NCBI GenBank assembly: GCA_007280875.1
Contig: QYQJ01000082.1
Span: forward strand, 1 to 57,780
Length of the DNA stretch: 57,780 nt
Origin: Bacteroidota bacterium
GTDB lineage: Bacteria; Bacteroidota; Bacteroidia; Bacteroidales; FEN-979
Reading direction: 5' to 3'
Shown: positions 8,466 through 48,342 of the stretch, piece by piece
Numbering within the stretch: the first letter of the stretch is position 1
Layout: each line of letters begins with the position of its first letter
Translations under genes and position numbers: made by a program
The notes under the pieces: generated by a model
The model's input: only the letters and a program-made list of their open reading frames with translations
The model's database searches: none
Told to the model about the DNA's origin: nothing

Positions 8466-8934
8466 TCCTGCCCACCACCTTTTCTTTTCTGCCAAAGTAT
8501 CCCTTTACTTTTTCAGATCTGATCAACGCCCGTTCCAGGTTTATCCCTGCCACCTGAAAATTAAGTTCAATCGTATGTCCATTGTGGCTTAGTTTCGCTT
8601 CGTCTGCCAGTGATCTAATAATAAATGTCTCCCGTGCAATAGCTTGCCTCTCGATTGCTTTATCGAGCTCGTCCAGGTCGCCAATCGCTGCATCCTTTCG
8701 AGTAACTAAAAAGTTCAATCCATTCCTGCTTTTAATTATTTTAATGGTCACTTCCCCTTCTCTTTTTAATCCCATAATTGCAGCTTCCGAAACTGCCAGC
8801 ATGATATTTCCGAAATATTCGCCCGGAACATTATAATAATCCAGGATCTCTTCAATAAAATGCTCCAGCCTGTGTAAATCCACACTTGAGGAGATTTTAA
8901 TTTTCTCTAGACTTCCAGCCATATCACTTTTCAA
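8458..8934 (-). CDS. Hypothetical protein (weak HATPase/anti-sigma-like resemblance)
   Basis: 158-aa ORF overlapping both neighbours on the same strand. The segment NIMLAVSEAAIMG vaguely resembles the N-box of RsbW/SpoIIAB-type proteins. No confident family. Confidence 0.4.
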   Translation of the reverse strand: MKSDMAGSLEKIKISSSVDLHRLEHFIEEILDYYNVPGEYFGNIMLAVSEAAIMGLKREGEVTIKIIKSRNGLNFLVTRKDAAIGDLDELDKAIERQAIARETFIIRSLADEAKLSHNGHTIELNFQVAGINLERALIRSEKVKGYFGRKEKVVGRNE

Positions 8935-11900
8935 TTTTAATCAGGTACTTGTTCGTTTTGCCTTTATAAAACCGGTTCACCGGCAACGTCTTGCGCCTCA
9001 GTAATTCAGTTCCCCCGTATGAATACTTGTTATACTCCAAATTTTGCCCCGGGTTACTATATTTTTGATTTTTCGCCTCATTTGATTCCCTTTCTTCCTG
9101 GTGTTCCCTGATTTGTTCCGCCCGCTCCGATTCAAGCAACCTCGTAAGAATCTTTTGCTGCCTTAACAATGACTCTCTGGTGACCTGTTTGTTGATCAGG
9201 TCTCTTTCATTTTGTTCCATCTCCTTTATTGCTTCATTCAAGCTTCCTTGATCCATTTCTCCCTGTTCCTTCAGGTACTGAGCATATTTCTGCAACTCTT
9301 CCCGCACAGCCTCCTGTTCTGCTGCCAGTCTGGCTATTTGCTCGTTCATACCCTGAGTCCCCGCTTTCCCTTTCTCTCCCTGCTTATTCATTTGCTCCTG
9401 CAATCCCTTTCGTATCCTTTCCATCTGCTCGGTTAATTGCTGCTGCATTTGGCTGATTTTTTTCATGTTCTTATTCCCTTTTCCCATGGATGGATTCTTA
9501 CACATTTTACCCCCTTTTCCTTTCATACTCATGTGCATCTCGTGGTTCATCTGTTCCATTGCCTCATCCAGTAATACAGCCAGGTTATTCAGCGCCGTCA
9601 TGGAAAACTGTTGTCCGGCCAATGCCTCCGGCATATTCCTTTCCGTTAAATTCTGTACTGTTTTCTCTATATTCCTTTTCAGTGAAAGCAGTTCTCTTGC
9701 AATTATCGGCTGGATGACAAACTGTCTTTTACCGATTGCTTCGAGTGTATCTTTGACCGGTTCCAGGTTTTCCATTACTTGCTTCTGCCTTGTTATGATC
9801 TGCTGAAATCCGGGATCATTCCGGTTAATGGTCCGGGTTCTGTTCAGCAATTCTTCCTGATCAAAGGAAACCGTCAGCAGATGCTCCAGTATCTGTCGTA
9901 TCTGGTGGGCATCTTCGGCATACTGGTCTTCCTCAGCCTCCGCTTGCATCTGCTCAAGATCGTCTGCCAGCCGGTCCATCTGCTCTCCGGCATCTCGCTG
10001 GTTTTTTTCTGCTTCCTTTTCATTCTGCTTCTCCATCTTTTCCACCACCTCTTTCAGCGATTCACTTATACTATCCTGCTTCTCCTTTGTCTTCTCGAGT
10101 CCTAGCGGACTCTCGAGCTCCTGATCCAGTTTCTCCAATTTTTTTAATTCCTTCTGAATGGAGTCGTATCTTGCATTCACCTGCTTTTGCCCGGATTTGT
10201 CCTCTTCCCGAATCTCCTTCTGCTGTTTAAGTTGATCCGCTAGTTCAGATTGTTTTTCAGCTGTTTCCCGCAGTTGTCTGATATTCTCCTCCAGCTTTCG
10301 TTCAAACTCAATTTGCTTGAATAATTCCAGATTACGATCGAGTTGTTGTTCCAACTCTTTTGCGGTCATTTTCATTTCCTCCATCAGGGTCTTTAACTTC
10401 TCCTTGTCAACCTGCTTCATCAACTCCTTAAGCTCCTCCAATGTCTTCTTCATCTCTTCCGTCATCATATCTCCCATCAACTCCTGAAGACGCTTCTGCT
10501 TTTCCATGATAGCCTGACTCGTCTGTAAAAATTGCTCTTCCGATTGAATTGCCTTCCTGTTCCCTTCCTTTATTTTGTCAATGGTCTGAAGCATCTCTTC
10601 GTTTCGCCTGATCAGTTCCTCTATGTCCTTCTTCTCCTGCCAGTCCAGTGTTTGCTTCTCCAGCAACTTCCGGTTCATCTGTTCAATTGCTTTTTCCACA
10701 TCCTCAGCGTCCTGTCTTGATTTTGACAGTTTTTCGCGGACCATCTGTTCATTCTCTTCCGCATGAGCACGTATCTCATCCATCGTGAGTGCACGGATTT
10801 CCCGTATTTCAGATCGTGCAGATTTAGGTCCCCTGATGCCATCATTGTCCCATACTTCAAAAAAATAAGTCATTCTCTCTCCCGGTTCAAGAAGAAATTT
10901 CTCCATATCAATCGAGTAATAAAATAGTTCTTCCCTTACCTCTTTACTGATCGGAAGTAAAACTTTTTCGTCTTTTCTGTGTATCGTATCTTCAGCCTCA
11001 CTGATTTTATAGTTAAATTCAAGTCCCGTAAAGCCGTAATCGTCCTTAACGGATCCTCTGAAGAATATCCTTGATGGTAAAAGTGAATCCTGCTGAATTT
11101 CGGTCAGGATTGACGGATAGCCATCCTCAATACAAATGATCCGGTAGGAGAGGGAGTCGTTGTTTTTGCTGGACTCATTCTCAGGCAGGAATGAATAATT
11201 TCCGGTTGACGCGCAACGGTATCGGTACGAAAAAAGGTTTGATCCATTTGATTTCATTTTTGTATCCCTATCCGGAAGACGCAGAAACAGGGATGTTACG
11301 TCCCGGGTATTCCATATCCACTGAATCATGGTCCCCTCGGGAGCGACAATATCGCCTGTGTTCTCCAAAATTTCACTCTTCCTTCCGGTATAAGCCGGAA
11401 ATTCCAGGTTCACCGTAAATGAAAAAATGGTCGGTCGGAGAAAAACCTTAATTCGGTATTCATCGCTCCGATATCTTTTAGCAACGATCCTGAATGAGAT
11501 CTCTTTTTGCAATGACCTGAACAGGAAAGAAAAATTACCCGCACTGTTCTGTCGCATGCGGTATGTGTATCCCTCTGTTTCAATATGAACCTCGGATGGA
11601 ATTTCCTCTCCTGTTACTCTCACCATCAGTTCGAAATCGTCTTGTTGGTAGGCTTCCAGTCGGTCGTTCAAAATGGTGACTTCAAATGGCAACGGGATTT
11701 CATATCCTTTCGAGTAATTTACGATCCGGCTTGTCGGCTCTGTAATAAAAGCCGGAGCTATAACCCAGGCCATTATAATAATGGCAACAGGAGGAATGGT
11801 CACCTTCAGGTATCGCAGATTTCTTTTATAATTGATCACCAGGGTAAACTGGAACAGTTTCATCTTTTGTATGCGCTGTTCAATGGAGGCTATCAGCAAT

Positions 11901-35730: not shown

Positions 35731-36666
35731 ATGACTGTTTTGAAAGAAACCCTGATCAGAGAAATAAAAACGTTACAACAGAAAAAAAATACTATAATCC
35801 TGGCCCATTTTTATCAGGTACCTGAAATACAAGATATTGCTGATTTTGTTGGAGATAGTCTGGCGTTGGCTCAAAGTGCTTATGAGACAGATGCCGAAAT
35901 CATTCTTTTTGCTGGTGTTCACTTCATGGCAGAGACAGCTAAAATATTGAATCCGGCAAAAAAAGTGATTATTCCGGATTTGGAAGCAGGATGTTCCCTT
36001 GCCGATTCTTGTCCGCCGGAAGAGTTCAACGCATTTAAGGAATTGCATCCTGATCATGTAGTTGTATCGTACATCAATTGTTCAGCTTCGGTCAAGGCTC
36101 TTTCTGATGTTATTTGCACTTCCAGCAATGCAATAAAGGTAGTGGAATCTTTTCCGAAAGAACAAAAGATCATTTTTACCCCCGATATAAACCTGGGGAA
36201 CTACGTGAATCATATCACCGGAAGGAACATGGTATTGTGGAACGGGTCCTGTGAAGTTCATGATGTGATTACGGTTGAATCGGTTATGCAGTTAAAAAAG
36301 GAACATCCTGACGCAAAAATTATAGCTCATCCTGAATGTAAGGCGATCATTCTGGCAATGGCCGATTATATCGGATCAACCACCAGTTTGCTGAATTACA
36401 CAAAAAATGATCCGGCTAAAAAATTTATAATAGCCACCGAAACAGGAATTCTGCATGCCATGCAAAAAATATCACCCGACAAAGAATTTTTAATCGTTCC
36501 GGCAGATGAAACATGTTCCTGTAATGATTGTCCTTACATGAAAAAAAATACACTGGAGAAAATATACCTTTCCCTGGAAAGAGAAAAACCTGAAATTATT
36601 CTGGAGCAGGAGTTAATCCTTAAAGCCCGGAAACCCATTTTGAAGATGTTAGATCTATCTATTTAA
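35731..36666 (+). CDS. nadA: Quinolinate synthase
   Basis: 311 aa. ILAHFYQVPEIQDIADFVGDSL, a FMAETAKIL segment, HPEC and a C-terminal Cys cluster, typical of NadA. Confidence 0.9.
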   Translation: MTVLKETLIREIKTLQQKKNTIILAHFYQVPEIQDIADFVGDSLALAQSAYETDAEIILFAGVHFMAETAKILNPAKKVIIPDLEAGCSLADSCPPEEFNAFKELHPDHVVVSYINCSASVKALSDVICTSSNAIKVVESFPKEQKIIFTPDINLGNYVNHITGRNMVLWNGSCEVHDVITVESVMQLKKEHPDAKIIAHPECKAIILAMADYIGSTTSLLNYTKNDPAKKFIIATETGILHAMQKISPDKEFLIVPADETCSCNDCPYMKKNTLEKIYLSLEREKPEIILEQELILKARKPILKMLDLSI

Positions 36667-36676
36667 CGGTTAAATT

Positions 36677-38218
36677 ATGCGTACGTTCTTGACTTGGATT
36701 ATACTTCACTGTTTATTCGTTTCACTATCGGGACAGGACACGACCCGTATTTCTGGGTTTCAGCAGTTTTTTTATCCAAATGGCCAGATTTCAAGCGAAG
36801 GGATCCTTGTGAATGGTCAACCTGACGGATACTGGAAATCTTATTATGAAAACGGGATTCTGAAATCGGAAGGAAACAGAACGAATTTCAAACTCGACAG
36901 TATCTGGAAGTTCTATAATCCGGAAGGAAAGCTCATTCTGGAAATCACCTACCGGGATGGAAAACGAAACGGATACAAAACCTCCTTCCTCGACAGGGAG
37001 ACCATCCGGGAATACTACATCAATGATAGTAAAGAGGGATTTACGGAATATTATCACACGGAAGGATGGAAGAAGCTGGAAATCCCTTTTGAAAAGGGGC
37101 TGGAACAGGGAATCGGAAAGGAGTATAACGAACAGGGAGAGATCATTACGATTACAGAATACAAAAAGGGATTCATTGTGGAACGAATGAAGATTAACCG
37201 GAAGGATAAACTTAACCGGAAACAGGGCAAATGGATCACTTTCTGGGAAAATGGAAAAATGAAGTTGGAGGGAACCTACAAAGACGACAAAAGAAACGGC
37301 TATTTCAAGGAATACGCCGAATCAGGAGACCTGTTGCAAATCACGAAATATATCGAAGGAGTTCTGCAACCTGAAGCGGCTGAAATCCAGAAACTTGATA
37401 TTGAAAAAGAATATTATCCGACCGGTACGGTCAAAGCTACCCGATTGTATAGAAACGGGGTTCTTGAAGGTATTTCTGTTGAGTATTCACCCGATGGAGC
37501 CATTGTGTCTGCTAAGGAATTCCAGGGAGGAATACAGATTGGACAGGGGTTGGTGCTGGAAGACGGTAGCCGGGAAGGACACTGGATAGAATACTATCCG
37601 GGCGGAACCCTGAAAGCGGAAGGAGATTACAAAGCAGACAAAAAAACCGGCAAATGGAACTATTTTCATCCAAATGGCAGGCTGGAACAAACAGGTGTTT
37701 ACAACAAAGAGGGAAAACCGGAAGGAACGTGGAAATGGTATTATGATTCAGGACAATTATTGCGGGAAGAGAACTATTACCGGGGCAAAAAAGATGGTCT
37801 TTCCGAAGAATTTGACGAAGAAGGCATCCTCATTGAAAAAGGGGAATACCTCGATGGCCTGGAAGACGGACCCTGGTTTCAGTGTGTCGGAGACTGGTGT
37901 CAGCGCGGCAGCTACCGGGATGGGTTGCGTAACGGGCTGTGGGTGGCGTATAACCTGCAGATTGGAGAAAAAGGAACCGATAGCCTGTTGATTTTCAAAG
38001 GAGGATTTCTGGAGGATCTTCCCGATGGAAAGCACTCCTATTACTGGGACAACGGAAAAATACGTGATGAAGGGATGTACGTTATGGGCAATAAAGAGGG
38101 GGATTGGATTAAATACAATTACGACGGGACCCTGTTCATGATTATATCGTATATAAACGGAATAGAAACCCGCTTCGACGGCGTCAGAATTAAACCACCA
38201 TTTGAACCGGAAGAATGA
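36677..38218 (+). CDS. MORN-variant (YwqK-like) repeat protein with signal peptide
   Basis: 513 aa made of many G-x-W-x-x-Y-Y-x-N/D-G-x-L/K repeats (for example GYWKSYYENGILKSEG, GTWKWYYDSGQLLREE). Confidence 0.7.
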   Translation: MRTFLTWIILHCLFVSLSGQDTTRISGFQQFFYPNGQISSEGILVNGQPDGYWKSYYENGILKSEGNRTNFKLDSIWKFYNPEGKLILEITYRDGKRNGYKTSFLDRETIREYYINDSKEGFTEYYHTEGWKKLEIPFEKGLEQGIGKEYNEQGEIITITEYKKGFIVERMKINRKDKLNRKQGKWITFWENGKMKLEGTYKDDKRNGYFKEYAESGDLLQITKYIEGVLQPEAAEIQKLDIEKEYYPTGTVKATRLYRNGVLEGISVEYSPDGAIVSAKEFQGGIQIGQGLVLEDGSREGHWIEYYPGGTLKAEGDYKADKKTGKWNYFHPNGRLEQTGVYNKEGKPEGTWKWYYDSGQLLREENYYRGKKDGLSEEFDEEGILIEKGEYLDGLEDGPWFQCVGDWCQRGSYRDGLRNGLWVAYNLQIGEKGTDSLLIFKGGFLEDLPDGKHSYYWDNGKIRDEGMYVMGNKEGDWIKYNYDGTLFMIISYINGIETRFDGVRIKPPFEPEE

Positions 38219-38994
38219 AACCGAGAAAACCACCCATCAGAAAACCTGACAATAAACAAGAAATGAAAGATACTGAATTGATCAGGCTAAATAAGTTTAT
38301 TGCGAATTCAGGTATTTGTTCCAGGCGGGAAGCGGATAAAATGATCTTGGCCGGTGCTGTAAAAGTGAATGGAAAAATCATCACGGAACTGGGAACCAAA
38401 ATAGCGCTGACAGATAAAGTGTTAATAGGCGACCAGGCGCTGCACCAGGAAAAGCTACGGTATATCCTGTTGAACAAGCCGAAAAACTATATAACCACCG
38501 CCGATGATCCCTATAAACGAAATACTGTAATGGCTCTGATCCGGGACGCCTGTCCCGAAAGGATCTACCCGGTCGGCCGGCTCGACCGTAACACCACCGG
38601 GCTGCTGCTGCTGACAAACGACGGGATCATTGCTAAAAAACTTACCCACCCCCGGTACGGTATCCGCAAGATTTACCATGTAGTGCTGGACCAACCCCTC
38701 ACAAAAGCGGATTTGCAGACGATTACCGGCGGAATCGAACTGGACGACGGATTTATCAAAGTCGACCGGATTGAATATGTAACAGACGGAAAAGATAAGA
38801 GGGAGGTAGGACTGGAGCTTCACTCTGGGAAAAACCGCGTCGTCAGACGGATCTTTGAAAAACTCGGTTATAAAGTGGAAAAACTTGACCGGGTCTATTT
38901 TGCCGGGTTGACGAAGAAAAATCTACCCAGGGGAAAATGGAGGTTTTTAGAGGAGAAAGAGATCAATATGTTGAAAATGATCAGCTCAAAGTGA
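38215..38994 (+). CDS. RsuA/RluB-family pseudouridine synthase
   Basis: S4 domain (IRLNKFIANSGICSRREADKMI) and catalytic motif GRLDRNTTGLLLLTNDG. Confidence 0.85.
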   Translation: MKPRKPPIRKPDNKQEMKDTELIRLNKFIANSGICSRREADKMILAGAVKVNGKIITELGTKIALTDKVLIGDQALHQEKLRYILLNKPKNYITTADDPYKRNTVMALIRDACPERIYPVGRLDRNTTGLLLLTNDGIIAKKLTHPRYGIRKIYHVVLDQPLTKADLQTITGGIELDDGFIKVDRIEYVTDGKDKREVGLELHSGKNRVVRRIFEKLGYKVEKLDRVYFAGLTKKNLPRGKWRFLEEKEINMLKMISSK

Positions 38995-39860
38995 TGAAAG
39001 AACCGATTACCATCTACATTGTCGAAGATGAATTATTGATTGCCGCCTGCCTGAAGGATCAGCTTCTCAGTACGGGATATAAGGTACTGGGCACGGCTAC
39101 CCGGGGCGAAAACAGCATTCAGGCTATCAGGGAGCTGAAGAATGAAGGACAGGAACCGGAGGTTGTGTTAATGGATATTCATCTTCGGGGAAACCTGGAT
39201 GGCATTGAGACAGCCCGGCTGATTTCAGAGGAGTTTCATTGTGCGATTATTTTTATCACCGGCCAGAGTTCGAAAGAAGTATATGACCGGTCGTTTCATA
39301 TCAAACCGTTCGGATATGTGCTGAAACCTTACGACCTCGAACAGATGATTATGATAATAGAAATCGCGGCCTATCAGCGGAAGCTGGAAATCGAAAACCT
39401 GGAAATCAGGGAAAAACTGGAAAAGCACCTGAACGAAAAAATCCGGGAGAACACCGAGGTGCTGGAACTCTATGAAACCATCACAGAAAATACCCTGCTT
39501 GGCATCTGGGTGCTTCAGGATGAAAAAGTAATATTTGCCAATAAAGCCATCGCCAATCTATTCGGGTATACCCTGGAAGAGATAAGTACCTTTAACGAAC
39601 GGGACCTATTGGGCCTGCTTCACCCGGACGACCGGAGCCGACTGCTGGATCTGGCCAGAAAACGGCTTCAGGGAGAGACTCCCCCGCAGCATGCCCTGTT
39701 TCGGATATTCAGAAAAGATGGGGAGACCCGGTGGATGAAAACGTTTGTCAGGCGCATCCAGCACCGGGGGAAACCAGCATTGCACCAGACCTACCTGGAT
39801 ATCACAGAATATGTGCATTTTGATCCAAACAAACCAGTTATACATGATGAAGAAAGTTAG
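38994..39860 (+). CDS. Response regulator with REC and PAS domains, no DNA-binding output
   Basis: REC (IYIVEDELLIA, VLMDIHLRG) followed by PAS (TENTLLGIWVLQDEKVIFANKAIANLFGY). The start MKEPIT at 38994 overlaps the upstream stop (ATGA). Confidence 0.8.
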   Translation: MKEPITIYIVEDELLIAACLKDQLLSTGYKVLGTATRGENSIQAIRELKNEGQEPEVVLMDIHLRGNLDGIETARLISEEFHCAIIFITGQSSKEVYDRSFHIKPFGYVLKPYDLEQMIMIIEIAAYQRKLEIENLEIREKLEKHLNEKIRENTEVLELYETITENTLLGIWVLQDEKVIFANKAIANLFGYTLEEISTFNERDLLGLLHPDDRSRLLDLARKRLQGETPPQHALFRIFRKDGETRWMKTFVRRIQHRGKPALHQTYLDITEYVHFDPNKPVIHDEES

Positions 39861-41802
39861 TCTGATTCTGCTTTTGCAGGCACTCGTGCACTGCACATTT
39901 GCAGGAGACCCCATCAGCGCACTGATCAAAACAGCCGGCGATGCCAGCACGTTTCCAAATGATGACCTGCTGGTGATCTTTGACAGCACCCTGACAGACG
40001 TGAAGGAAAGCGGATTGACCTATGTGACCAATCATATGCTTTACAAAGTGTTGACTCCTGCAGGAGCCAAAGAACTGAATGCTCTTACGTTTGGGTATGA
40101 TCCGCAATCGGCCTTTGTGGAGATCCGAAAAGCAGCTGTCTATAAAAACGATGGCCGGATCATGAATCTTGACCTGAACAGGGTTATGGATTACCCTGCA
40201 CCCGCCAGGGGAATATACTGGGGCGCCCGGGAGATCATGATCGAAATGGGACGGCTTGACCCCGGAGACGCGATAGAGGTGGTCATGTTCCGAAAAGGAT
40301 TTACCTATGCCCTGCTGCAACAAAACGATGAAGACCGGTACATTCCCCCGATGCGGGGCCAATTCTATGATATTGTGGAATTTTTCAGCTCCTGGCCGGT
40401 TAACCTGAAAGTATACCAGGTGAGAGTGCCGAAAGAGAAATTACTACAATTTGAATTTTACAATGGAGAGGCGCAGGTATCAGGCTGGCTGGAGGGGGAT
40501 GCCTTTGTGTACACCTTTTCGAAGACCGGCATGCGACCCATCAAACAGGAACCAAGAATGGTTGCCCTGTCGGATGTGGCACCGAAACTACTGCTTTCCA
40601 CCAGCCCCGACTGGGTTGCCAAATCCACCTGGTTTTTCAAGGTCAACGAGGATTTCGGCAGTTTTGATTTTACCCCGGAGATCAAAGCCAAGGTGGATAC
40701 TATTTTGAAAGGAGCCCGCACAGAAGCGGATTCAATCTCCCTGCTCACCCACTGGTGCGCTGATGAGATCCGCTATTCGGGCATCTCTATGGGAGAAGGG
40801 GAGGGCTTCACCCTGCATAAAGGAGCAATGACTTTCAACGACCGGTGCGGAGTATGCAAAGACAAAGCCGGAATGCTGATAACCATGTTACGGGCTGCCG
40901 GATTTATGTCGTACCCGGCCATGACCATGGCCGGATCACGGATCGACTACATTCCGGCCGACCAGTTCAACCACTGTGTGACGGTGGTAAAACTCAAGGA
41001 TGGTCAATATCATCTCCTGGACCCTACCTGGGTGCCCTTTCTCCGCGAGTTGTGGTCCAGCGCTGAACAACAGCAGCAATACCTGATGGGGGTTCCCGAA
41101 GGGGCCGACCTGGCAACTACTCCACTTTCGCCGCCTGAAAATCATTATATTCACGTGGTTGCTGAAGCGGAATTACTGGATGACGGGACACTGGAAGGGA
41201 CCCTGGTGATCACGGCAGAAGGGCAATCGGACGGATCGGTTCGCGGGTATTTTAAAAATTCCAATCAAACTGAATGGAACCGGAACATCGAACGGGAATT
41301 TCTGCGGATCCACCCTAAAGCCACCATCACGAAACTGAATTACGGAGACCCCATGGATTACCTTTCAGGACCCATCCGGATCGAAATCGGGTACTGCATT
41401 CCGGATTACGCAATGGTTTCAGGAAACACCCTGTTTTTTAAACCGTTGATGGCTTCGCAGTTATTCAAATCGGCTCAATCGCACCTCTATTTCGAAACCG
41501 ATCTGGAAACAAGGCAGTTTCCTTTTCGCGACAGGTGTTCCCGCCAGGTCGTGGTTTCAGAAAAGATACGGATCCCCTCCCTGGAAAAGACAGTCCGGAT
41601 TCCGGAACCGGTCAACCTGCAGGGAGCCTTTGCTTCCATCACAGGCGGATACAACCTGCAGGGAGAGACCCTCGTTTTTAAAGAAGAGATCTCATTTGGA
41701 AAACGGATCTACGAAGCCGGCGAATGGCCTGAATACCGGGATGCAGTCAAAGCCCAGAACCGCTTTGCAGACGAAATGGTTGTGGTGGATTTAAAAAAAT
41801 GA
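39844..41802 (+). CDS. Secreted DUF3857-type transglutaminase-like protein with catalytic triad present
   Basis: Signal peptide MMKKVSLILLLQALVHCTFA. Transglutaminase core with Cys (RCGVCKDKAGMLITMLRAAG), His (QFNHCVTVV) and Asp (HLLDPTW). Confidence 0.75.
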   Translation: MMKKVSLILLLQALVHCTFAGDPISALIKTAGDASTFPNDDLLVIFDSTLTDVKESGLTYVTNHMLYKVLTPAGAKELNALTFGYDPQSAFVEIRKAAVYKNDGRIMNLDLNRVMDYPAPARGIYWGAREIMIEMGRLDPGDAIEVVMFRKGFTYALLQQNDEDRYIPPMRGQFYDIVEFFSSWPVNLKVYQVRVPKEKLLQFEFYNGEAQVSGWLEGDAFVYTFSKTGMRPIKQEPRMVALSDVAPKLLLSTSPDWVAKSTWFFKVNEDFGSFDFTPEIKAKVDTILKGARTEADSISLLTHWCADEIRYSGISMGEGEGFTLHKGAMTFNDRCGVCKDKAGMLITMLRAAGFMSYPAMTMAGSRIDYIPADQFNHCVTVVKLKDGQYHLLDPTWVPFLRELWSSAEQQQQYLMGVPEGADLATTPLSPPENHYIHVVAEAELLDDGTLEGTLVITAEGQSDGSVRGYFKNSNQTEWNRNIEREFLRIHPKATITKLNYGDPMDYLSGPIRIEIGYCIPDYAMVSGNTLFFKPLMASQLFKSAQSHLYFETDLETRQFPFRDRCSRQVVVSEKIRIPSLEKTVRIPEPVNLQGAFASITGGYNLQGETLVFKEEISFGKRIYEAGEWPEYRDAVKAQNRFADEMVVVDLKK

Positions 41803-41827
41803 ATAACGGGTTAATAAGCCTAGCAAT

Positions 41828-43663
41828 ATGAAACAAGTCACGATACTGATATTATTCTCTCTTTCTCTCTTTCCATTTTTTCATCTTTCTGCACAGGAGG
41901 AAAAATACGATGCCATATACCTGTCTCTGACCAAAGAGTACACCCTGAATACCGACGGTACCATGGAATACCGCTATGCCAAGGAACAGAAACTGCAAAA
42001 CTACCGGTCGTTTCACCGGTTATTCGGAGAGACATTCATTTTGTATAATCCTGATTATCAGATACTCACTGTAGATCAGTCGCTTACAGTCATGGCCGAC
42101 GGTAAAAATGTGGTCACACCGGCAAATGCATTTAACGAAGTGCTTCCAAGATTTGCTTCCCACGCCCCGGCCTTCAACCGGTTACGTGAACTGGTCATCA
42201 CCCATACCGGGCTTGAAGTTGGTGCTACCGTGTATCTTGATTACCGGATCCGGACAGCCGTTGATTTCTTCCCTGCATTTATGGGGAGCACGATTTTGGC
42301 CGAAAACCAACCGGTAAAATCCCTTACGATGATCCTTCGGGTACCGGAAAACAAACCCCTGTTTTTTAAATTGTTCAACAGCGAGAAAAAACCATCGGAG
42401 ACAACCGAAAACGGATTTCGGGTATACCGATGGGCCCTGAACGGGATCCCGGCCATGTCGCCCGAAGATCACCGCCCCAACGATCAGTCGCTTTATCCGA
42501 CTCTGATCTTCAGCACACTTGATGGGTATCGGCCGATCGCCGGCTTTTTCATGGATCAGGAGGCTTTCAGGTACGCCACATCTGAGACCATGAATCAATT
42601 TGTAACAAAATTGGAAACAGACCGGAAAGAGAAAAAAGAGCTCCTTTTTACCCTGCAGGATTTTGTAGTGAAAGAGATCAATCTCTTTGACGTCCCCGGG
42701 GAACTTACCGGGTATCGGCTCCGGACTCCGGAAGAACTATGGAACAGCAACGGTGGAACAGTGGCGGAAAAAGCGGTTTTCCTGACAGCCCTTTTGAAGC
42801 AGGCCGGAATCCAGGCACAGCCGGTACTGGTTTTCGACGGATCCGATTTTAACAACCAAATAGGAACCCTTACTACACTGGAAGATTGGGTGGTGAGGGC
42901 CGAAGTGGCCGGACTCGGAGAGGTATATTTATCGGTAGAACAGGCAAATGCGTTTGATATGCCTGTGCTTGAACCCGGAAAGGTATTCCTGGTTCTGAAG
43001 GAAGATGGGACCTTCCAACCGGTTGATACAGAAGCGAAAAAAAACGCTCTTTCGCTGAAAGGAATACTGGTGATCGGTACGGCGCTGACCCTTTCAGGCG
43101 AACTCATAGGAACGATCAGCGGCCCTTCCAATCCTTTTCTGGCCTTGACCCGAAGTGAAAATAAGCTGAAGCAATATTTCCGGGGCGGAGTGGCTTCAGC
43201 CGAAATTAAGGAGATCTCTTTTTCCAGGCTGACACCTGCGGAATCTTCTTTTACCTGCAGAGTGGATCAAGCAGAAATAGTAAAAAAAGATTTGAACTAT
43301 TTGTTCTTCACGCTTCCGTATCTGAATACCGGGATTGAAAGCTGGAATGTCCAAGCGCTGGTTGCAAAGCGTGAGACACCACTGGAAATACCTTTTCCAT
43401 TAGAGGAAAAGTACGATTTTACAATCGCTTTACCTGATAACATGAAAGTGTTTTTACCCAAGCAAAATATAAGAATTACAAATCAGGCAGGTTCATATTT
43501 ATTTGTTGTGTCACAACGGGGCGGAACAATTCATGTTAGAAAAGAGTTAACCATTAACCAGTACATCATTACGCCTGAGAGATACACCGGGTTCAAAGAA
43601 TTAGTTACTACATGGTATTTACCTGGAAACAGTAGTCTTATTTTTGGATTTATTGACCGATAA
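41828..43663 (+). CDS. Secreted DUF3857/DUF3858-type paralogue with degenerate transglutaminase core
   Basis: Signal peptide. The homologous core segment GGTVAEKAVFLTALLKQAG lacks the nucleophile Cys, and the His position reads LEDWVVRA. Confidence 0.6.
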   Translation: MKQVTILILFSLSLFPFFHLSAQEEKYDAIYLSLTKEYTLNTDGTMEYRYAKEQKLQNYRSFHRLFGETFILYNPDYQILTVDQSLTVMADGKNVVTPANAFNEVLPRFASHAPAFNRLRELVITHTGLEVGATVYLDYRIRTAVDFFPAFMGSTILAENQPVKSLTMILRVPENKPLFFKLFNSEKKPSETTENGFRVYRWALNGIPAMSPEDHRPNDQSLYPTLIFSTLDGYRPIAGFFMDQEAFRYATSETMNQFVTKLETDRKEKKELLFTLQDFVVKEINLFDVPGELTGYRLRTPEELWNSNGGTVAEKAVFLTALLKQAGIQAQPVLVFDGSDFNNQIGTLTTLEDWVVRAEVAGLGEVYLSVEQANAFDMPVLEPGKVFLVLKEDGTFQPVDTEAKKNALSLKGILVIGTALTLSGELIGTISGPSNPFLALTRSENKLKQYFRGGVASAEIKEISFSRLTPAESSFTCRVDQAEIVKKDLNYLFFTLPYLNTGIESWNVQALVAKRETPLEIPFPLEEKYDFTIALPDNMKVFLPKQNIRITNQAGSYLFVVSQRGGTIHVRKELTINQYIITPERYTGFKELVTTWYLPGNSSLIFGFIDR

Positions 43664-43692
43664 TACCAAAACCCCACCTGAATGAACATTTC

Positions 43693-45351
43693 ATGCCCGG
43701 ACTGAATATAATAATTGGAAACAAGGGCCTTTCTGGTCCAAACGATCTCCTTGAAACCGTATTAAAACGTTGTTTGTATACTTTTGAATACAGGACGAAA
43801 GTATATTGCTTGTTTGAAAATTTACGGATTGCTGTGGTAACCTATGCCGGTTATCCGGTACGTTATTTTTCAGACGACCGGTTTGAATATTTTTTAGAGG
43901 GCAGGATATACAATTTATCAGACCAACAGGAAGAACAACGGATCAAAGAGATCCCAAAAGTATTTCAGGGAAACTGTATACCCGGGGATCGGTTATATGC
44001 CCTCTTAAATTCAGACGATGCAGAGTTTTTTCTGTGTATTGTAGACCGGCTTTCCCGCCAATGGATGCTTGTTGGAGACTCCTTGAGCAGGCTTCCGGTC
44101 TATTCCTGCCAGAATAAAAACTGGGCGCTGTATCTCCGGGATCTGGCTATAAAAAGAGCATTAATACCTGACGAACCGGATCAGGTTGGAGTAGCGGAGA
44201 CATTATACTTCGGGTATCCACTTTCCGACCGTACGATATATCGTTATACACACCGGCTGATGCCTGCATTTTATATACTGGAAGATATACACGGGAGAAA
44301 GACCGGCACCTGGAAACAATATAATTTTGAGAACTATCATACCGAACGGGATCCCCGTATTATTGCCGGGAAAGCTCGTGAATTGTTTTTAAATGCCTGT
44401 ACTCTGAGGCTGAGGTCGTATGAAGAACGAAAATTGTCATTAAGCGGAGGCCTGGATTCCCGTGTAATTGGAAGCGCCTTGCGGACGCTGAAATTAACAT
44501 TCCGAATCGATTCCTATCTTGATCCATGGAATAATGCTCTTCAGGATTTGCAAGTGGCCAAAAAAATAGCAGATACCTGGGAGAAAAAGCTGAATGTTGT
44601 TGAAATAAAAAGATCCTCCGGAGAGTTTGAAGATATGCTGATAAAAATGAAATCCGGAATGAACTCACTTGGGATGTCATTTATTCTTGAGTTTTTTACC
44701 CGGATTTCTGGTCCCGGGATGGTTTATATTACCGGAGACGGTGGAGATAAGGTACTTCCGGATTTAACCTGGGACATGCAGGGAAAAAATGTCTATCAGC
44801 TTGCTTCGTTTATTCTGAAAAAACACATCATAATAGTTCCTGAAATTGTCGCAAAAGATACGCGGACAGAGATGATTCGTAATTCACTGGTTGAATTACT
44901 TGAAGCCTCGCCCGAAAAATCAATGGAAGGAAAGTATATTCGGTTCCTTATCATGGGAAGAGGGGTAAAGTGGTTATTCGAGGGCGAAGATCGCAACCGG
45001 TGCTTTTTTCCCTCGATTACTCCATATTATTCCACCCCGCTGTTTGATTATTTAATGGCGATAGATCCGGCAGTGAAAAAGAATTATCAATTGTATCACC
45101 GTTTTATTTCGGTTGTTTCCCCGGAAACCTTACGGATCGATAATGCCAACTGGAATTTTCCGATAGATCAGACGACGCGCATAAGGTTTTTACTCTTCAA
45201 ACAACGAGTAAAATATTCACTGCCCGGATGGGCATTGAATGTTGCTGAAAAAAAAGATCATCAGGAATATGTCTTTATCCTGAAAACACTATCAAAGGTT
45301 TTTGGTGACAGATTCGATCCGAATCAGTCACCACTTTTAGTGAGCAAATGA
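43693..45351 (+). CDS. Asparagine synthetase-like ATP-pyrophosphatase lacking the glutaminase nucleophile
   Basis: PP-loop SLSGGLDSRVIG. The N-terminal domain keeps an AsnB-like layout (EGRIYNL, AEFFLCIVDRLSRQWMLVGDSLSRLPVY), but residue 2 is Pro (MPGLN) instead of the catalytic Cys. Confidence 0.7.
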   Translation: MPGLNIIIGNKGLSGPNDLLETVLKRCLYTFEYRTKVYCLFENLRIAVVTYAGYPVRYFSDDRFEYFLEGRIYNLSDQQEEQRIKEIPKVFQGNCIPGDRLYALLNSDDAEFFLCIVDRLSRQWMLVGDSLSRLPVYSCQNKNWALYLRDLAIKRALIPDEPDQVGVAETLYFGYPLSDRTIYRYTHRLMPAFYILEDIHGRKTGTWKQYNFENYHTERDPRIIAGKARELFLNACTLRLRSYEERKLSLSGGLDSRVIGSALRTLKLTFRIDSYLDPWNNALQDLQVAKKIADTWEKKLNVVEIKRSSGEFEDMLIKMKSGMNSLGMSFILEFFTRISGPGMVYITGDGGDKVLPDLTWDMQGKNVYQLASFILKKHIIIVPEIVAKDTRTEMIRNSLVELLEASPEKSMEGKYIRFLIMGRGVKWLFEGEDRNRCFFPSITPYYSTPLFDYLMAIDPAVKKNYQLYHRFISVVSPETLRIDNANWNFPIDQTTRIRFLLFKQRVKYSLPGWALNVAEKKDHQEYVFILKTLSKVFGDRFDPNQSPLLVSK

Positions 45352-45358
45352 ACGAAGG

Positions 45359-47047
45359 ATGCCGGAAGCACTATCATTCGGAATTTTATGCAATAGCCTG
45401 ATGCTAGAAAGATGGCAGGCTGATTCGATCAAACATCTCCGGGATCATGGCATAGAGCTGAAACTTATCATTGTTAAGGCTTCCGGTAAGGAACCCGTTC
45501 TCCAAAACCGGATCCGGTCAAAAATCAACCGGCTTTTCTCCAGGAACGCACTTTTTTATTTTTTTGATCGCTATTTTCTTCATCCTGAATCAAAAAGGAT
45601 TGTAAATTATACCGACGAGGCCACAGATATTTATAAGCTTTTCTGCACTCCTGAAAAACGGAAATACATCTCTTTCTTTCATGAAAAGGATCTTCAAACC
45701 ATCCGGGAAATCGGCCCGCATTTTCTTCTCAGATTTGGATTTGGGATTATTGGTGGCGAGATTTTAACAATCCCTCAGTATGGCATTTGGTCATTCCATC
45801 ATGGCGATGAAATGAAATACCGGGGTGGACCTCCTGGTTTCTGGGAGATACTGAATAACGAACCGGTCACAGGTGTTATTCTGCAGCGATTGAATGAAAG
45901 ATTGGATAAAGGATTTATCTTGAGAAAAGGATGGTTCAAAACGCAACGCCATTCCTATAAGGGTCAGCTGGATCAGCTCTATCTACAGACAACCCGGTGG
46001 CCGTTGCAAGTATGTATTGCGATTCAAAACGGGACCCACTCCGAATGGTTATCTGACAGCAAGGCTCCCTTGTACAGGGCGCCGGGAAATGTTACAATCG
46101 CAAAATTTCTGTATAAGTTGATCTGGAACAGACTGATGTTTCACTTCAACGAACTGACTCGTGCAGAGGACTGGAATATCGGTATTATTCACAGGGCGAT
46201 TCACGATATTGTCAAATGGGGTTGGGATCCGGAAGAAGTGCAATGGTTCCCGAAACCCAAACTGTCGAAATTTGTCGCCGATCCCTTTTTACTTGAAATT
46301 GACGGCAGATCAACCGTGTTCTTTGAATATTATAGTTACCGGAGATCAAAAGGAGAACTATACAGCATGGATATATGTGATATGCAAAGTTTTCCTAAAC
46401 AGATCAGAAAAGCACTACAGACAGAAAATCATAGCTCATTTCCTTTTGTCTTTTCCTTTCAGGGGGAATATTTTCTAATTCCCGAAACCCATCAGGATAA
46501 CCGGATTGTTTTGTACAGCCTGAACCATGATACCGGGCAATTCGGTTATAATCGTACATTAGTGGATCATATGTCGGGTGTAGATCCTGTTATTCTTCAC
46601 TATCAAAACAAATGGTGGCTGTTTTTTACCCGGAAGGATCTTCCCAGTGTTCATCTATATATCTATTATTCGCAGTCGTTATTTGATAAGTTCATATCAC
46701 ATTCCAATAATCCGGTAAAAACGGATATTCGTTCCAGCCGTCCGGCCGGATCGTTTATCCGGATGGATGGCTGGCTTATCAGGCCGGCACAGGATTGTTC
46801 CTGGCATTATGGAGCGAGGATAGTATTGAATCATGTACTAAAATTATCTCCTTTCGATTTTCAGGAAGAGAAATATCTGACGGTTTGTCCGAAAGGAAAT
46901 TATTATTCTGAAGGATTGCATACGATAAATGGAAATGACCGGATTACAATAATTGATGGAAAAGAGTTTCGCTTTCTTTGGTCAAATTTTTTTCATGGGC
47001 TAAAACGAATTGCAAATAACCGGATAGGAATTACAGGCATATGGTAA
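45359..47047 (+). CDS. Formyltransferase-like N-domain fused to a beta-propeller-like (GH43/GINT1_N-like) C-domain
   Basis: N-terminal half has the Fmt/ArnA-type motif SFHHGDEMKYRGGPPGFWEILNNEPVTGVILQRLNERLDKG. The C-terminal roughly 290 aa (FVADPFLL, FFEYYSY, WWLFFTR) resemble bacterial GINT1_N-type proteins. The C-domain assignment is tentative. Confidence 0.55.
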   Translation: MPEALSFGILCNSLMLERWQADSIKHLRDHGIELKLIIVKASGKEPVLQNRIRSKINRLFSRNALFYFFDRYFLHPESKRIVNYTDEATDIYKLFCTPEKRKYISFFHEKDLQTIREIGPHFLLRFGFGIIGGEILTIPQYGIWSFHHGDEMKYRGGPPGFWEILNNEPVTGVILQRLNERLDKGFILRKGWFKTQRHSYKGQLDQLYLQTTRWPLQVCIAIQNGTHSEWLSDSKAPLYRAPGNVTIAKFLYKLIWNRLMFHFNELTRAEDWNIGIIHRAIHDIVKWGWDPEEVQWFPKPKLSKFVADPFLLEIDGRSTVFFEYYSYRRSKGELYSMDICDMQSFPKQIRKALQTENHSSFPFVFSFQGEYFLIPETHQDNRIVLYSLNHDTGQFGYNRTLVDHMSGVDPVILHYQNKWWLFFTRKDLPSVHLYIYYSQSLFDKFISHSNNPVKTDIRSSRPAGSFIRMDGWLIRPAQDCSWHYGARIVLNHVLKLSPFDFQEEKYLTVCPKGNYYSEGLHTINGNDRITIIDGKEFRFLWSNFFHGLKRIANNRIGITGIW

Positions 47048-48342
47048 GAAAGATCACACAAACGTTCCTGGTACGGGTTATCAATGCATTTCTCATGCTG
47101 ATCCTGGTTTTATTATGCACCAACACACTCAAACCTGAATATTATGGAACCATCGGGTTGATTGTACTTGATATCGCGCTGATCATGCTTCTGAACGACC
47201 TGATAGGGGGAAGCGCTATGGTATTTTTCTCTTCCCGGATAAACCTATTCAGTCTGATCCTAATCGGTTATCTATGGGCAATAATTACTTTTGTGGTCGC
47301 TACAGGTATTGGATCTGTCCTTTCCCTTTTTCCGACAGTTTATAGTATTATTGTTCCTTCCGGATTTGGTACACATATTCTGATTCTTGCACTTATAAAC
47401 TCCTTTTCAACTATCCATATCAATATTTTGATCGGAAAGGAAAAGATCACTCTGTATAATACTACCTTTTTGACCCAGATAATCAGTTTGGTAATTTTAG
47501 TATCGCTCCTGCTGTTTGTGATTCATATCAGAACCACTATCATGTATGTGTATGCGCTGTATGGATCTTATCTCCTTACATGGATGATGGGATTATTTCT
47601 TACAAGACGGCATATACGGATTGATCATGTAAAGGAAATTTTTTCGGGAATTGCCGAAATAGTAAAATATGGAATATTCACCCAGATCGCTAACCTCATT
47701 CAACTGGGTAACAAACGGTTTAACTTTTATGTAATCAAAGCGATACACGGAGCATCCCCACTCGGGATATTCAATGCAGCTATACAACTTACGGAGGGAT
47801 TAAGGATAATAGGACAGAGCATCTCGCTGATACAATTCTCCCGTATTTCCAGTTCGCGCGATTTGGTATATTCGCGTGAACTTACTATCCGGTTGTTAAA
47901 AGTCACTGTGCTGGTAACCATGTTTTTAACATTGGTCATGATCGCCATTCCGGAAGGAATATATGCATGGATTTTTGGTGAAGCTTACCGTTTCATTCAC
48001 ACTCTGGTGTTTTGCCTCGCCCCGGGAATTCTGGCACTGAATGCTTCCATGTTACTGAGTTCCTTTTTTTCAGGAATCGGAAAGCCTAAATACAATATGA
48101 TTGCATCCGGGATAGGTTTTCTCTTTACCCTCGGAGCGATATATCCTGCCGTTCTTTATTGGAACTATGTTGGAGCCGGACTTACGGCTTCGGCTGCATA
48201 TATCCTCGCCACGATTTACCAGATGGTAAAATTCATAAAATTAACCAAAGTCACACACCGGGAATTCTTCATCAGACCATCCGATTTTATACTGGTTTAT
48301 CAGATGATCCGAGTGGAATTTTCAAAAAAATACAAAAGATAA
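47041..48342 (+). CDS. MOP-superfamily (Wzx/PST-like) polysaccharide or lipid-linked glycan flippase
   Basis: 433 aa with about 12 TM helices. The N-terminus (TFLVRVINAFLMLILVLLCTNTLKPEYYG) is typical of the oligosaccharide flippase family. 7-nt overlap with the upstream gene. Confidence 0.7.
   Translation: MVRKITQTFLVRVINAFLMLILVLLCTNTLKPEYYGTIGLIVLDIALIMLLNDLIGGSAMVFFSSRINLFSLILIGYLWAIITFVVATGIGSVLSLFPTVYSIIVPSGFGTHILILALINSFSTIHINILIGKEKITLYNTTFLTQIISLVILVSLLLFVIHIRTTIMYVYALYGSYLLTWMMGLFLTRRHIRIDHVKEIFSGIAEIVKYGIFTQIANLIQLGNKRFNFYVIKAIHGASPLGIFNAAIQLTEGLRIIGQSISLIQFSRISSSRDLVYSRELTIRLLKVTVLVTMFLTLVMIAIPEGIYAWIFGEAYRFIHTLVFCLAPGILALNASMLLSSFFSGIGKPKYNMIASGIGFLFTLGAIYPAVLYWNYVGAGLTASAAYILATIYQMVKFIKLTKVTHREFFIRPSDFILVYQMIRVEFSKKYKR

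Follow-up and report, generated by a model that had tools for sequence, protein, structure and literature searches.

A candidate add-on cassette to a compact GT4–flippase module in Bacteroidales: an AsnB-like enzyme, a formyltransferase-fold–propeller fusion and a flippase

Wzx-dependent loci for O-antigen, capsular polysaccharide (CPS) and exopolysaccharide (EPS) combine a MOP/PST flippase with glycosyltransferase (GT) partners of family GT4 and cytoplasmic sugar-modifying enzymes, and they embed distant members of an AsnB-like family as well as stand-alone propeller proteins. Here we analyzed three adjacent genes that share these features, located at positions 43693–48342 of a 57,780-nucleotide stretch of DNA, hereafter the window (contig QYQJ01000082.1 of the Bacteroidota assembly GCA_007280875.1, order Bacteroidales). 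The trio encodes a predicted Cys-less AsnB-like amide synthetase (P0001), a fusion of a formyltransferase-fold domain with a five-bladed propeller (P0002) and a MOP-type flippase (P0003). In contrast to the Wzx-dependent loci, the module to which these genes belong consists of only 2–4 genes, without Wzy, Wzz/PCP, Wza, a priming phosphoglycosyltransferase or sugar-nucleotide genes, and in relatives it occupies a conserved housekeeping position beside parE.

By analogy, the nearest experimentally supported precedent for the amidation step considered below is WbpS of Porphyromonas gingivalis. This AsnB-family protein, encoded next to the wzx-like gene porS, converts a uronic acid to the uronamide of the linking sugar of the T9SS (type IX secretion system), as shown genetically, and matches the amidotransferase family TIGR03108 (PMC7468200). 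The arrangement porR–porS(wzx)–wbpS(asnB) of the Wbp/Vim pathway resembles the trio in that a Bacteroidales AsnB-family gene adjoins a gene for a Wzx-like flippase, and its uronamide chemistry is the one that we propose here. However, P0001 lacks the Cys nucleophile and scores only 22 bits against TIGR03108, the model cut-off being 817, and it is not an orthologue of WbpS. Moreover, Wbp/Vim genes are missing from the vicinity of the trio, and the fusion has no counterpart in that pathway.

We consider it moderately probable that the three genes form a self-contained cassette added on to a small conserved pathway of a GT4 plus a flippase, which would produce a lipid-linked envelope sugar or short glycan. 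Measured against the described systems, the trio would be a variant of a Wzx-dependent glycan module built from three uncharacterized families, a modest lead and not a new type of system. With a single GT4, one or two enzymes for decoration and a single flippase, a module this compact is a minimal genetic system in which to assign functions to the fusion and to the AsnB-like enzyme with its MPG-type N-terminus. It also allows asking if Wzx-type flippases diverge in step with one particular chemical decoration of their substrate, an issue tied to the old question of Wzx substrate specificity.

Co-inheritance of the trio and its GT4 partner

An initial annotation of the window had placed the three genes with a 7-nt gap between those of P0001 and P0002 and a 7-nt overlap between those of P0002 and P0003, and the three open reading frames (ORFs) were found exactly there:

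43693–45351, + strand: P0001, 552 aa, predicted Cys-less AsnB-like amide synthetase; N-terminal nucleophile (Ntn)-like N-domain starting MPG, then a PP-loop ATP-pyrophosphatase domain with SGGLDS at residues 251–256
45359–47047, + strand: P0002, 562 aa, fusion protein
45359–46150, + strand: N-domain of P0002 (about residues 1–264), formyltransferase fold plus linker helix, with Ser145-His147-Asp183 at the catalytic positions
46151–47047, + strand: C-domain of P0002, five-bladed beta-propeller plus C-terminal helix; GINT1_N (PF24793), GH117/GH62/GH43-like fold
47041–48342, + strand: P0003, 433 aa, MOP/PST (Wzx-like) flippase, from the flippase clade associated with the AsnB-like gene

Sets of AsnB-like gene, fusion and flippase are present in the window, L004, L027, L005/L008, G214/L028/L029, L058/L076, L068/L081/L090/L097, L009/L010 and G246. 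The trio thus recurs in about six lineages amid surroundings that are mutually unrelated (serine hydroxymethyltransferase (SHMT), copper ATPase, TonB receptor, UvrD, C25 peptidase, parE). Its genes share one direction in the window and in L004 and L027; elsewhere the AsnB-like gene is divergent. This recurrence supports the initial suggestion of a functional unit. Some of these arrangements include a GT4 gene: L009 and L010 read GT4, AsnB-like (minus strand), fusion, flippase and ParE, and in G246 the AsnB-like gene stands directly beside GT4 with the fusion–flippase pair 25 kb away on the same contig.

The junction between fusion and flippase has also received inserts. A restriction-modification set of two methyltransferases and a DpnII-like nuclease lies there in L009 (11782–15085), and a different insert of about 3 kb occupies the same position in L110 of G041 (8646–11684).

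Of 301 genomes surveyed from the window's order, the fusion was found in 37, the flippase family in 103 and one particular GT4 in 102, and 6 have the AsnB-like gene. The base unit, which is widespread, consists of this GT4 with the flippase directly after it, and usually lies between pnuC plus a NadR-like kinase gene on one side and parE on the other. In relatives the full order reads PnuC, NadR-like, GT4, (AsnB-like), fusion, flippase, ParE. Besides the window's own genome, 28 genomes carry a full-length fusion, and the flippase lies immediately 3′ of it in 26; the two exceptions are a fusion at a contig end and one with the flippase on another contig. A GT4 orthologue is present in all 28 and in the window's genome (29/29), against 102 of the 301 overall, and it mostly stands directly upstream of the fusion (for example in L001, L002, L009, L010, G083, G242 and G054). 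Given a GT4–flippase base unit that has the fusion in a subset of genomes and the AsnB-like gene in fewer, the fusion is an optional insert and the AsnB-like gene a rarer second addition.

In the window's genome, contig C155 encodes the GT4 followed by a flippase paralogue, again between PnuC/NadR-like and ParE, and the only fusion gene and the only AsnB-like gene both reside inside the window. Therefore, the seemingly missing glycosyltransferase sits elsewhere in the genome. The initial description of a module without a glycosyltransferase thus holds locally, but not for the genome or for the relatives with GT4 directly 5′ of the fusion; a module that appears glycosyltransferase-less in its own neighbourhood can be the displaced part of a split pathway. 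No named NCBIfam equivalog was found for the GT4, every match being under its cut-off. Neither Wzy, a chain-length regulator, a priming transferase nor sugar-nucleotide genes were found beside the trio or beside the GT4–flippase site, in the window's genome and in the relatives, in agreement with the initial report that Wzy, Wzz and sugar-nucleotide genes are lacking. As to whether the trio might be the edge of a standard capsule or O-antigen locus with its glycosyltransferases elsewhere, the glycosyltransferase is indeed elsewhere, but the parent is a compact 2–4-gene module instead of a standard locus.

In a maximum-likelihood tree of 40 flippases, all 15 members adjacent to an AsnB-like gene fall into one clade of 19 rows (support 100/99), the remaining four rows being G246, G084 (at a contig end), G120 and G196. 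Outside this clade lie the remaining 21 flippases, and none of them has an AsnB-like gene nearby. The fusion tree recovered the same sub-clades. The flippase on C155 groups with those of G242 and G122, two genomes of the same family, and the native GT4 of the window's genome likewise groups with its same-family relatives, but neither the flippase nor the fusion of the window does so. G246 and G126, from one genus, possess flippases of different clades.

Base composition agrees with these trees. The trio has a GC content of 0.40–0.42 and a GC content at third codon positions (GC3) of 0.41–0.43, corresponding to percentiles 2–4 among the 1,347 long ORFs in the genome of 3.03 Mb (GC mean 0.507, sd 0.038; GC3 mean 0.598, sd 0.078). 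Respective GC3 values of the native GT4 and the flippase paralogue on C155 are 0.55 and 0.66, against 0.43 for P0003. Because of the discordant flippase and fusion trees and the GC3 contrast between two homologous flippases of one genome, the trio probably entered the lineage by lateral transfer, consistent with acquisition as a unit as initially suggested. The putative transfer would be older than the split from L004, a 70%-identical relative, since L004 has the entire gene string that leads up to the trio in the window.

Folds, motifs and wider context of the three families

The AlphaFold2 (AF2) model of P0001 (predicted local distance difference test (pLDDT) 90) shows the two-domain AsnB fold. 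Over both domains, Foldseek matched it to carbapenam synthetase CarA, human ASNS, TsnB9, beta-lactam synthetase and AsnB with E values of 1e-17 to 1e-13 (CarA 1.6e-17), and a profile of 44 homologues retrieved human ASNS (E 9e-10), TsnB9, beta-lactam synthetase, AsnB and CarA from the PDB. The AsnB scores of P0001 in Pfam and NCBIfam are far below the cut-offs. Among the 44 homologues, S251, G252, G253, D255 and S256 of the PP-loop motif SGGLDS are invariant. The N-terminus is MPG and not MCG; the Cys nucleophile of a glutaminase is absent. This MPG(I/L) start is shared by over 100 homologues of Bacteroidota, Ignavibacteria, Krumholzibacteriota, KSB1, Planctomycetes and other phyla, and the MPG-type AsnB-like clade as a whole is distributed over many bacterial phyla and haloarchaea. 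Position 2 in distant AsnB-like members is Val (haloarchaea), Leu or Ala, and therefore this residue is not a conserved nucleophile; the idea of an N-terminal Pro acting as nucleophile in the manner of Fpg or tautomerases was dropped on the same grounds. The N-domain is best read, by analogy with beta-lactam synthetase, as a non-glutaminase remnant. Hydrophobic segments are absent from P0001.

P0001 thereby shares with the Cys-less synthetases of the AsnB superfamily (beta-lactam synthetase, CarA, lasso-peptide cyclases and TsnB9) the two-domain fold, an intact PP-loop and the loss of the glutaminase nucleophile. However, its identity to them is only 12%–15%, its context is polysaccharide instead of natural-product biosynthesis, and its group forms a separate MPG(I/L) clade over many phyla.

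For P0002, the AF2 model (pLDDT 92) comprises a formyltransferase-fold N-domain and a five-bladed propeller. Foldseek matched the N-domain to Fmt, ArnA, FDH and WbkC (E 1e-10 to 1e-8), and a search with the family profile matched Fmt (E 1e-5). In the profile alignment to Fmt (4iqf) and ArnA, S145 falls on the catalytic Asn, H147 on His and D183 on Asp, and all three residues are invariant among 37 homologues, so that the family carries Ser-His-Asp in place of the Asn-His-Asp triad. Compared with the N-formyltransferases (ArnA N-domain, WbkC, QdtF and Fmt), P0002 retains the fold and the catalytic His and Asp, and its alignment to Fmt and ArnA spans the segment equivalent to HxSLLPxxRG. It differs in the invariant Ser, in the lack of a PF00551 match above threshold, in being joined to a propeller instead of a C-terminal barrel or dehydrogenase, and in that no aminotransferase in the module could supply an amino sugar. 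In two related loci, a gene for SHMT, an enzyme of folate one-carbon metabolism, is located immediately upstream of the divergent AsnB-like gene (L005 6035–7315; L008 1–881), an adjacency that gives a weak hint that the Fmt-like domain may use folate.

The propeller of P0002 matches GINT1_N (PF24793), which is the N-terminal domain of plant GINT1, with 94.6 bits against a cut-off of 27, and the same model hit it in a search of the whole genome. Its fold resembles GH117 and GH62 in Foldseek; GH43 (PF04616) matches are faint and confined to some homologues. As regards the Asp/Asp/Glu catalytic triad of GH43, D308, D409 and E503 are conserved at a GH43-like spacing. The residues D308, E323, H358, E376, D409, R461, R475, H521 and D533 form an invariant set that is kept in stand-alone propellers and in very distant fusions. 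P0002 thus resembles the five-bladed propeller glycosidases and phosphorylases (GH43, GH62 and GH117) and the GINT1 N-terminal domain in fold, in the GINT1_N match and in the acidic residues on successive blades. In contrast to these enzymes, it is predicted to be cytoplasmic, lacks a signal peptide and stands in a biosynthetic context; since it has no hydrophobic segment, it is predicted to be soluble. The invariant Arg and His residues would rather hint at the binding of phosphate or a nucleotide.

The fusion family is large, with 1,365 matches in a word-indexed search. An exhaustive profile search gave 12,332 clusters at 50% identity with E ≤ 1e-3, including 6,533 with E ≤ 1e-30. A few members are interrupted: one in-frame TGA each is present in G049:C11:18581-20221 and G191:C19:148057-149721, and the fusion is split into two ORFs in L081 (6214–7898) while being intact in the near-identical L090. 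These may be pseudogenes or assembly errors.

P0003 has about 10–12 hydrophobic segments and is 34% identical to the second flippase copy on C155. Polysacc_synt (PF01943) is matched by 18 of 22 members of its family (best E 3e-14), with P0003 alone scoring 23.2 bits, under the 28.2 cut-off. MatE is not among the families matched, weak MurJ matches occur in 3 of the 22 members, and a sequence search of the PDB with the flippase profile gave no match. All three identities proposed in the initial annotation were thereby upheld: the Cys-less AsnB-like enzyme by its start, PP-loop and fold; the fusion of a formyltransferase-like domain with a propeller by recovery of both folds; and the MOP flippase by polytopic topology and family-level matches, P0003 itself remaining sub-threshold.

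More distant relatives place these families in glycan biosynthesis. An AsnB-like profile retrieved 80 metagenome loci, nine of which contain the fusion and flippase and one more the flippase only; in the others, the gene lies among GT4s (27 loci), Wzx (13 loci), GT2, DegT aminotransferase, epimerase/dehydratase, Wza and polysaccharide deacetylase. Stand-alone GINT1_N propellers of about 300 aa are found inside classical loci of CPS or O-antigen type (L128 8278–9177, L127 7967–8908, L129 8133–9035 and L133 8291–9220); one such CPS locus also encodes UDP-glucose dehydrogenase (UGDH), Wzx, GT2, EpsG, GT4 and a 2-epimerase, and another is ordered Wzy_C, propeller, GT4. In one family from another class of the phylum, 42 of 85 genomes encode a stand-alone propeller protein, and the GINT1_N model also matches in the control genome of Bacteroides thetaiotaomicron. 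In G452, from a different class of the phylum, the fusion stands together with GT4, Wzx and a divergent Cys-less AsnB-like gene whose product starts MAG. A 37%-identical fusion (L003 9974–11716) lies inside a GT4/GT2/methyltransferase cluster on a 271-kb contig of a metagenome-assembled genome of Promethearchaeota (Asgard), which could be an inter-domain transfer or a binning error. Therefore, these AsnB-like, stand-alone propeller, G452 and Asgard contexts indicate polysaccharide or glycolipid biosynthesis, in line with the initial idea that the trio modifies and exports an envelope molecule.

A putative pathway and its alternatives

The gene structure, the folds and motif states, the co-inheritance, the presence of the GT4 on another contig and the deviating composition are observations; the model that we infer from them is putative as to its substrates, the chemistry and sequence of its steps and its reliance on the GT4. 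Initially, the GT4 encoded on C155 would build a basic lipid-linked sugar at the cytoplasmic face of the inner membrane. The soluble fusion might then add or remodel a substituent, using its Fmt-fold domain with His and Asp and with Ser for Asn, and the acid/His/Arg pocket of its propeller. Afterwards, the Cys-less AsnB-like enzyme would adenylate a carboxylate, most likely a uronic-acid carboxyl, and form the amide from free ammonia or an amine instead of glutamine. Finally, the flippase of the cassette would move the decorated product across the inner membrane, with the native paralogue handling the undecorated one.

Several observations weigh against this model. The literature on the bacterial GINT1 domain, on propeller enzymes of capsule loci and on uronic-acid amidation gave no function for the three families, and the database names of homologues are all "hypothetical" or domain-derived. 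Uronic-acid, amino-sugar and priming-transferase genes are absent from the module, so the proposed chemistry has no local support, and the replacement of the catalytic Asn by Ser renders folate-dependent formyl transfer by P0002 uncertain. The association of the AsnB-like gene with the flippase clade amounts in essence to a single phylogenetic event, and no AsnB-like gene was detected in G120 and G196, although both belong to that clade. In several lineages the trio is far from the GT4, so the dependence on the GT4 rests on co-presence in genomes, and these relatives are not independent samples. The AT-richness that the initial annotation had remarked on is real but shared beyond the trio: nadA, which opens the same gene string, has a GC content of 0.386, in the lowest 1% of the genome, and therefore composition alone cannot delimit the trio.

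Related to the add-on cassette is a version that we regard as unlikely, in which the trio acts as a plug-in unit re-coding a conserved envelope glycolipid. Here the propeller would be an unrecognized sugar-phosphate- or nucleotide-sugar-dependent transferase, functionally similar to propellers of GT108/GH130 type and fused to a re-purposed Fmt-fold domain (Ser for Asn), with AsnB-like amidation of the product. The cassette flippase would have co-diverged to take only the amidated form, and the two paralogues would yield two variants per cell.

It is also possible, if rather doubtful, that the trio constitutes an independent pathway that makes no use of the C155 GT4 and instead decorates and flips another lipid-linked glycan, either the product of another Wzx locus or a T9SS cargo anchor like anionic lipopolysaccharide (A-LPS). 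The trio is indeed away from GT4 in most AsnB-bearing lineages, and other parts of the window's genome contain three more Wzx genes and two priming transferases of WbaP type. But every full-length fusion in the genomes surveyed comes with a GT4 orthologue in its genome, and L009, L010 and G246 bring AsnB-like gene and GT4 together in one run or side by side. As for the T9SS, the wbpS/porS precedent would apply here also by analogy, and a C25 peptidase of about 1140 aa with a propeptide and a T9SS sorting domain adjoins the AsnB-like gene in three arrangements within one metagenome group (L068 9739–13167, L081 9858–13286, L058 3–3581, L097 4189–4946 and L063 5305–7812). This peptidase resembles PorU in size and domains. 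The adjacency is limited to that one related group, and the nearest homologue in the window's genome lies on another contig (C62); a T9SS link through the neighbouring PorU-like peptidase was accordingly rejected. P0001 also falls far short of the family of WbpS.

The two remaining explanations give the enzymes different substrates. Synthesis and export of a small molecule that bears an amide or lactam bond and a formyl or acyl substituent, with a MOP-superfamily member as exporter, seems improbable. MATE exporters belong to the MOP superfamily, the top structural matches of the P0001 model are the natural-product amide synthetases CarA, beta-lactam synthetase and TsnB9, and the trio comes without sugar-nucleotide genes. 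However, the flippase family matches Polysacc_synt and not MatE, GT4s are the partners that are conserved, two of the three genes have distant homologues in polysaccharide loci, and scaffold-forming biosynthetic genes were not found beside any locus examined. Most improbable of all is modification of a peptidoglycan precursor, in which P0001 would amidate a lipid II carboxylate in the style of LtsA/AsnB1 and P0003 would serve as an alternative lipid II flippase. AsnB-family enzymes amidate meso-diaminopimelate in some bacteria, and the weak MurJ matches in the flippase family point the same way. Yet the genome has a separate MurJ-like gene on C189, the patchy AsnB-like gene is distributed unlike core cell-wall functions, its partners are a GT4 and a glycosidase-like propeller, and no mur or fem genes are adjacent.

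Surroundings of the locus

The trio forms the 3′ end of a nine-gene co-directional string (35731–48342) with upstream gaps of at most 29 nt. Profile searches assigned nadA (35731–36666) to the head of the string, followed by a MORN-repeat protein and an RluF-like pseudouridine synthase, and a REC-PAS protein plus two DUF3857 transglutaminase-like proteins to the positions directly 5′ of the trio. The string is as initially described, and both transglutaminase-like proteins have signal-peptide-like N-termini, which fits the initial description of these neighbours as secreted. A functional tie of the trio to the REC-PAS and transglutaminase-like genes was rejected; only the closest relative, L004, has them too. 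On the 3′ side, dnaG is convergent, 20 nt away. No mobile-element signatures fit the 29-nt and 20-nt gaps that flank the trio, and a scan for sigma-70 promoters and terminators at the locus gave chance-level results only. Public gene calls begin both enzymes later (P0124, 513 aa; P0004, 548 aa), whereas conserved N-termini of homologues back the longer starts at 43693 and 45359.

Genes of NAD metabolism are found near both loci of the window's genome. In addition to nadA at the head of the window string, pnuC and the NadR-like kinase gene stand upstream of the C155 GT4, and yjeF/nnr lies 3′ of parE (L015 7981–9276 and 14340–15395 for the C155 genes).

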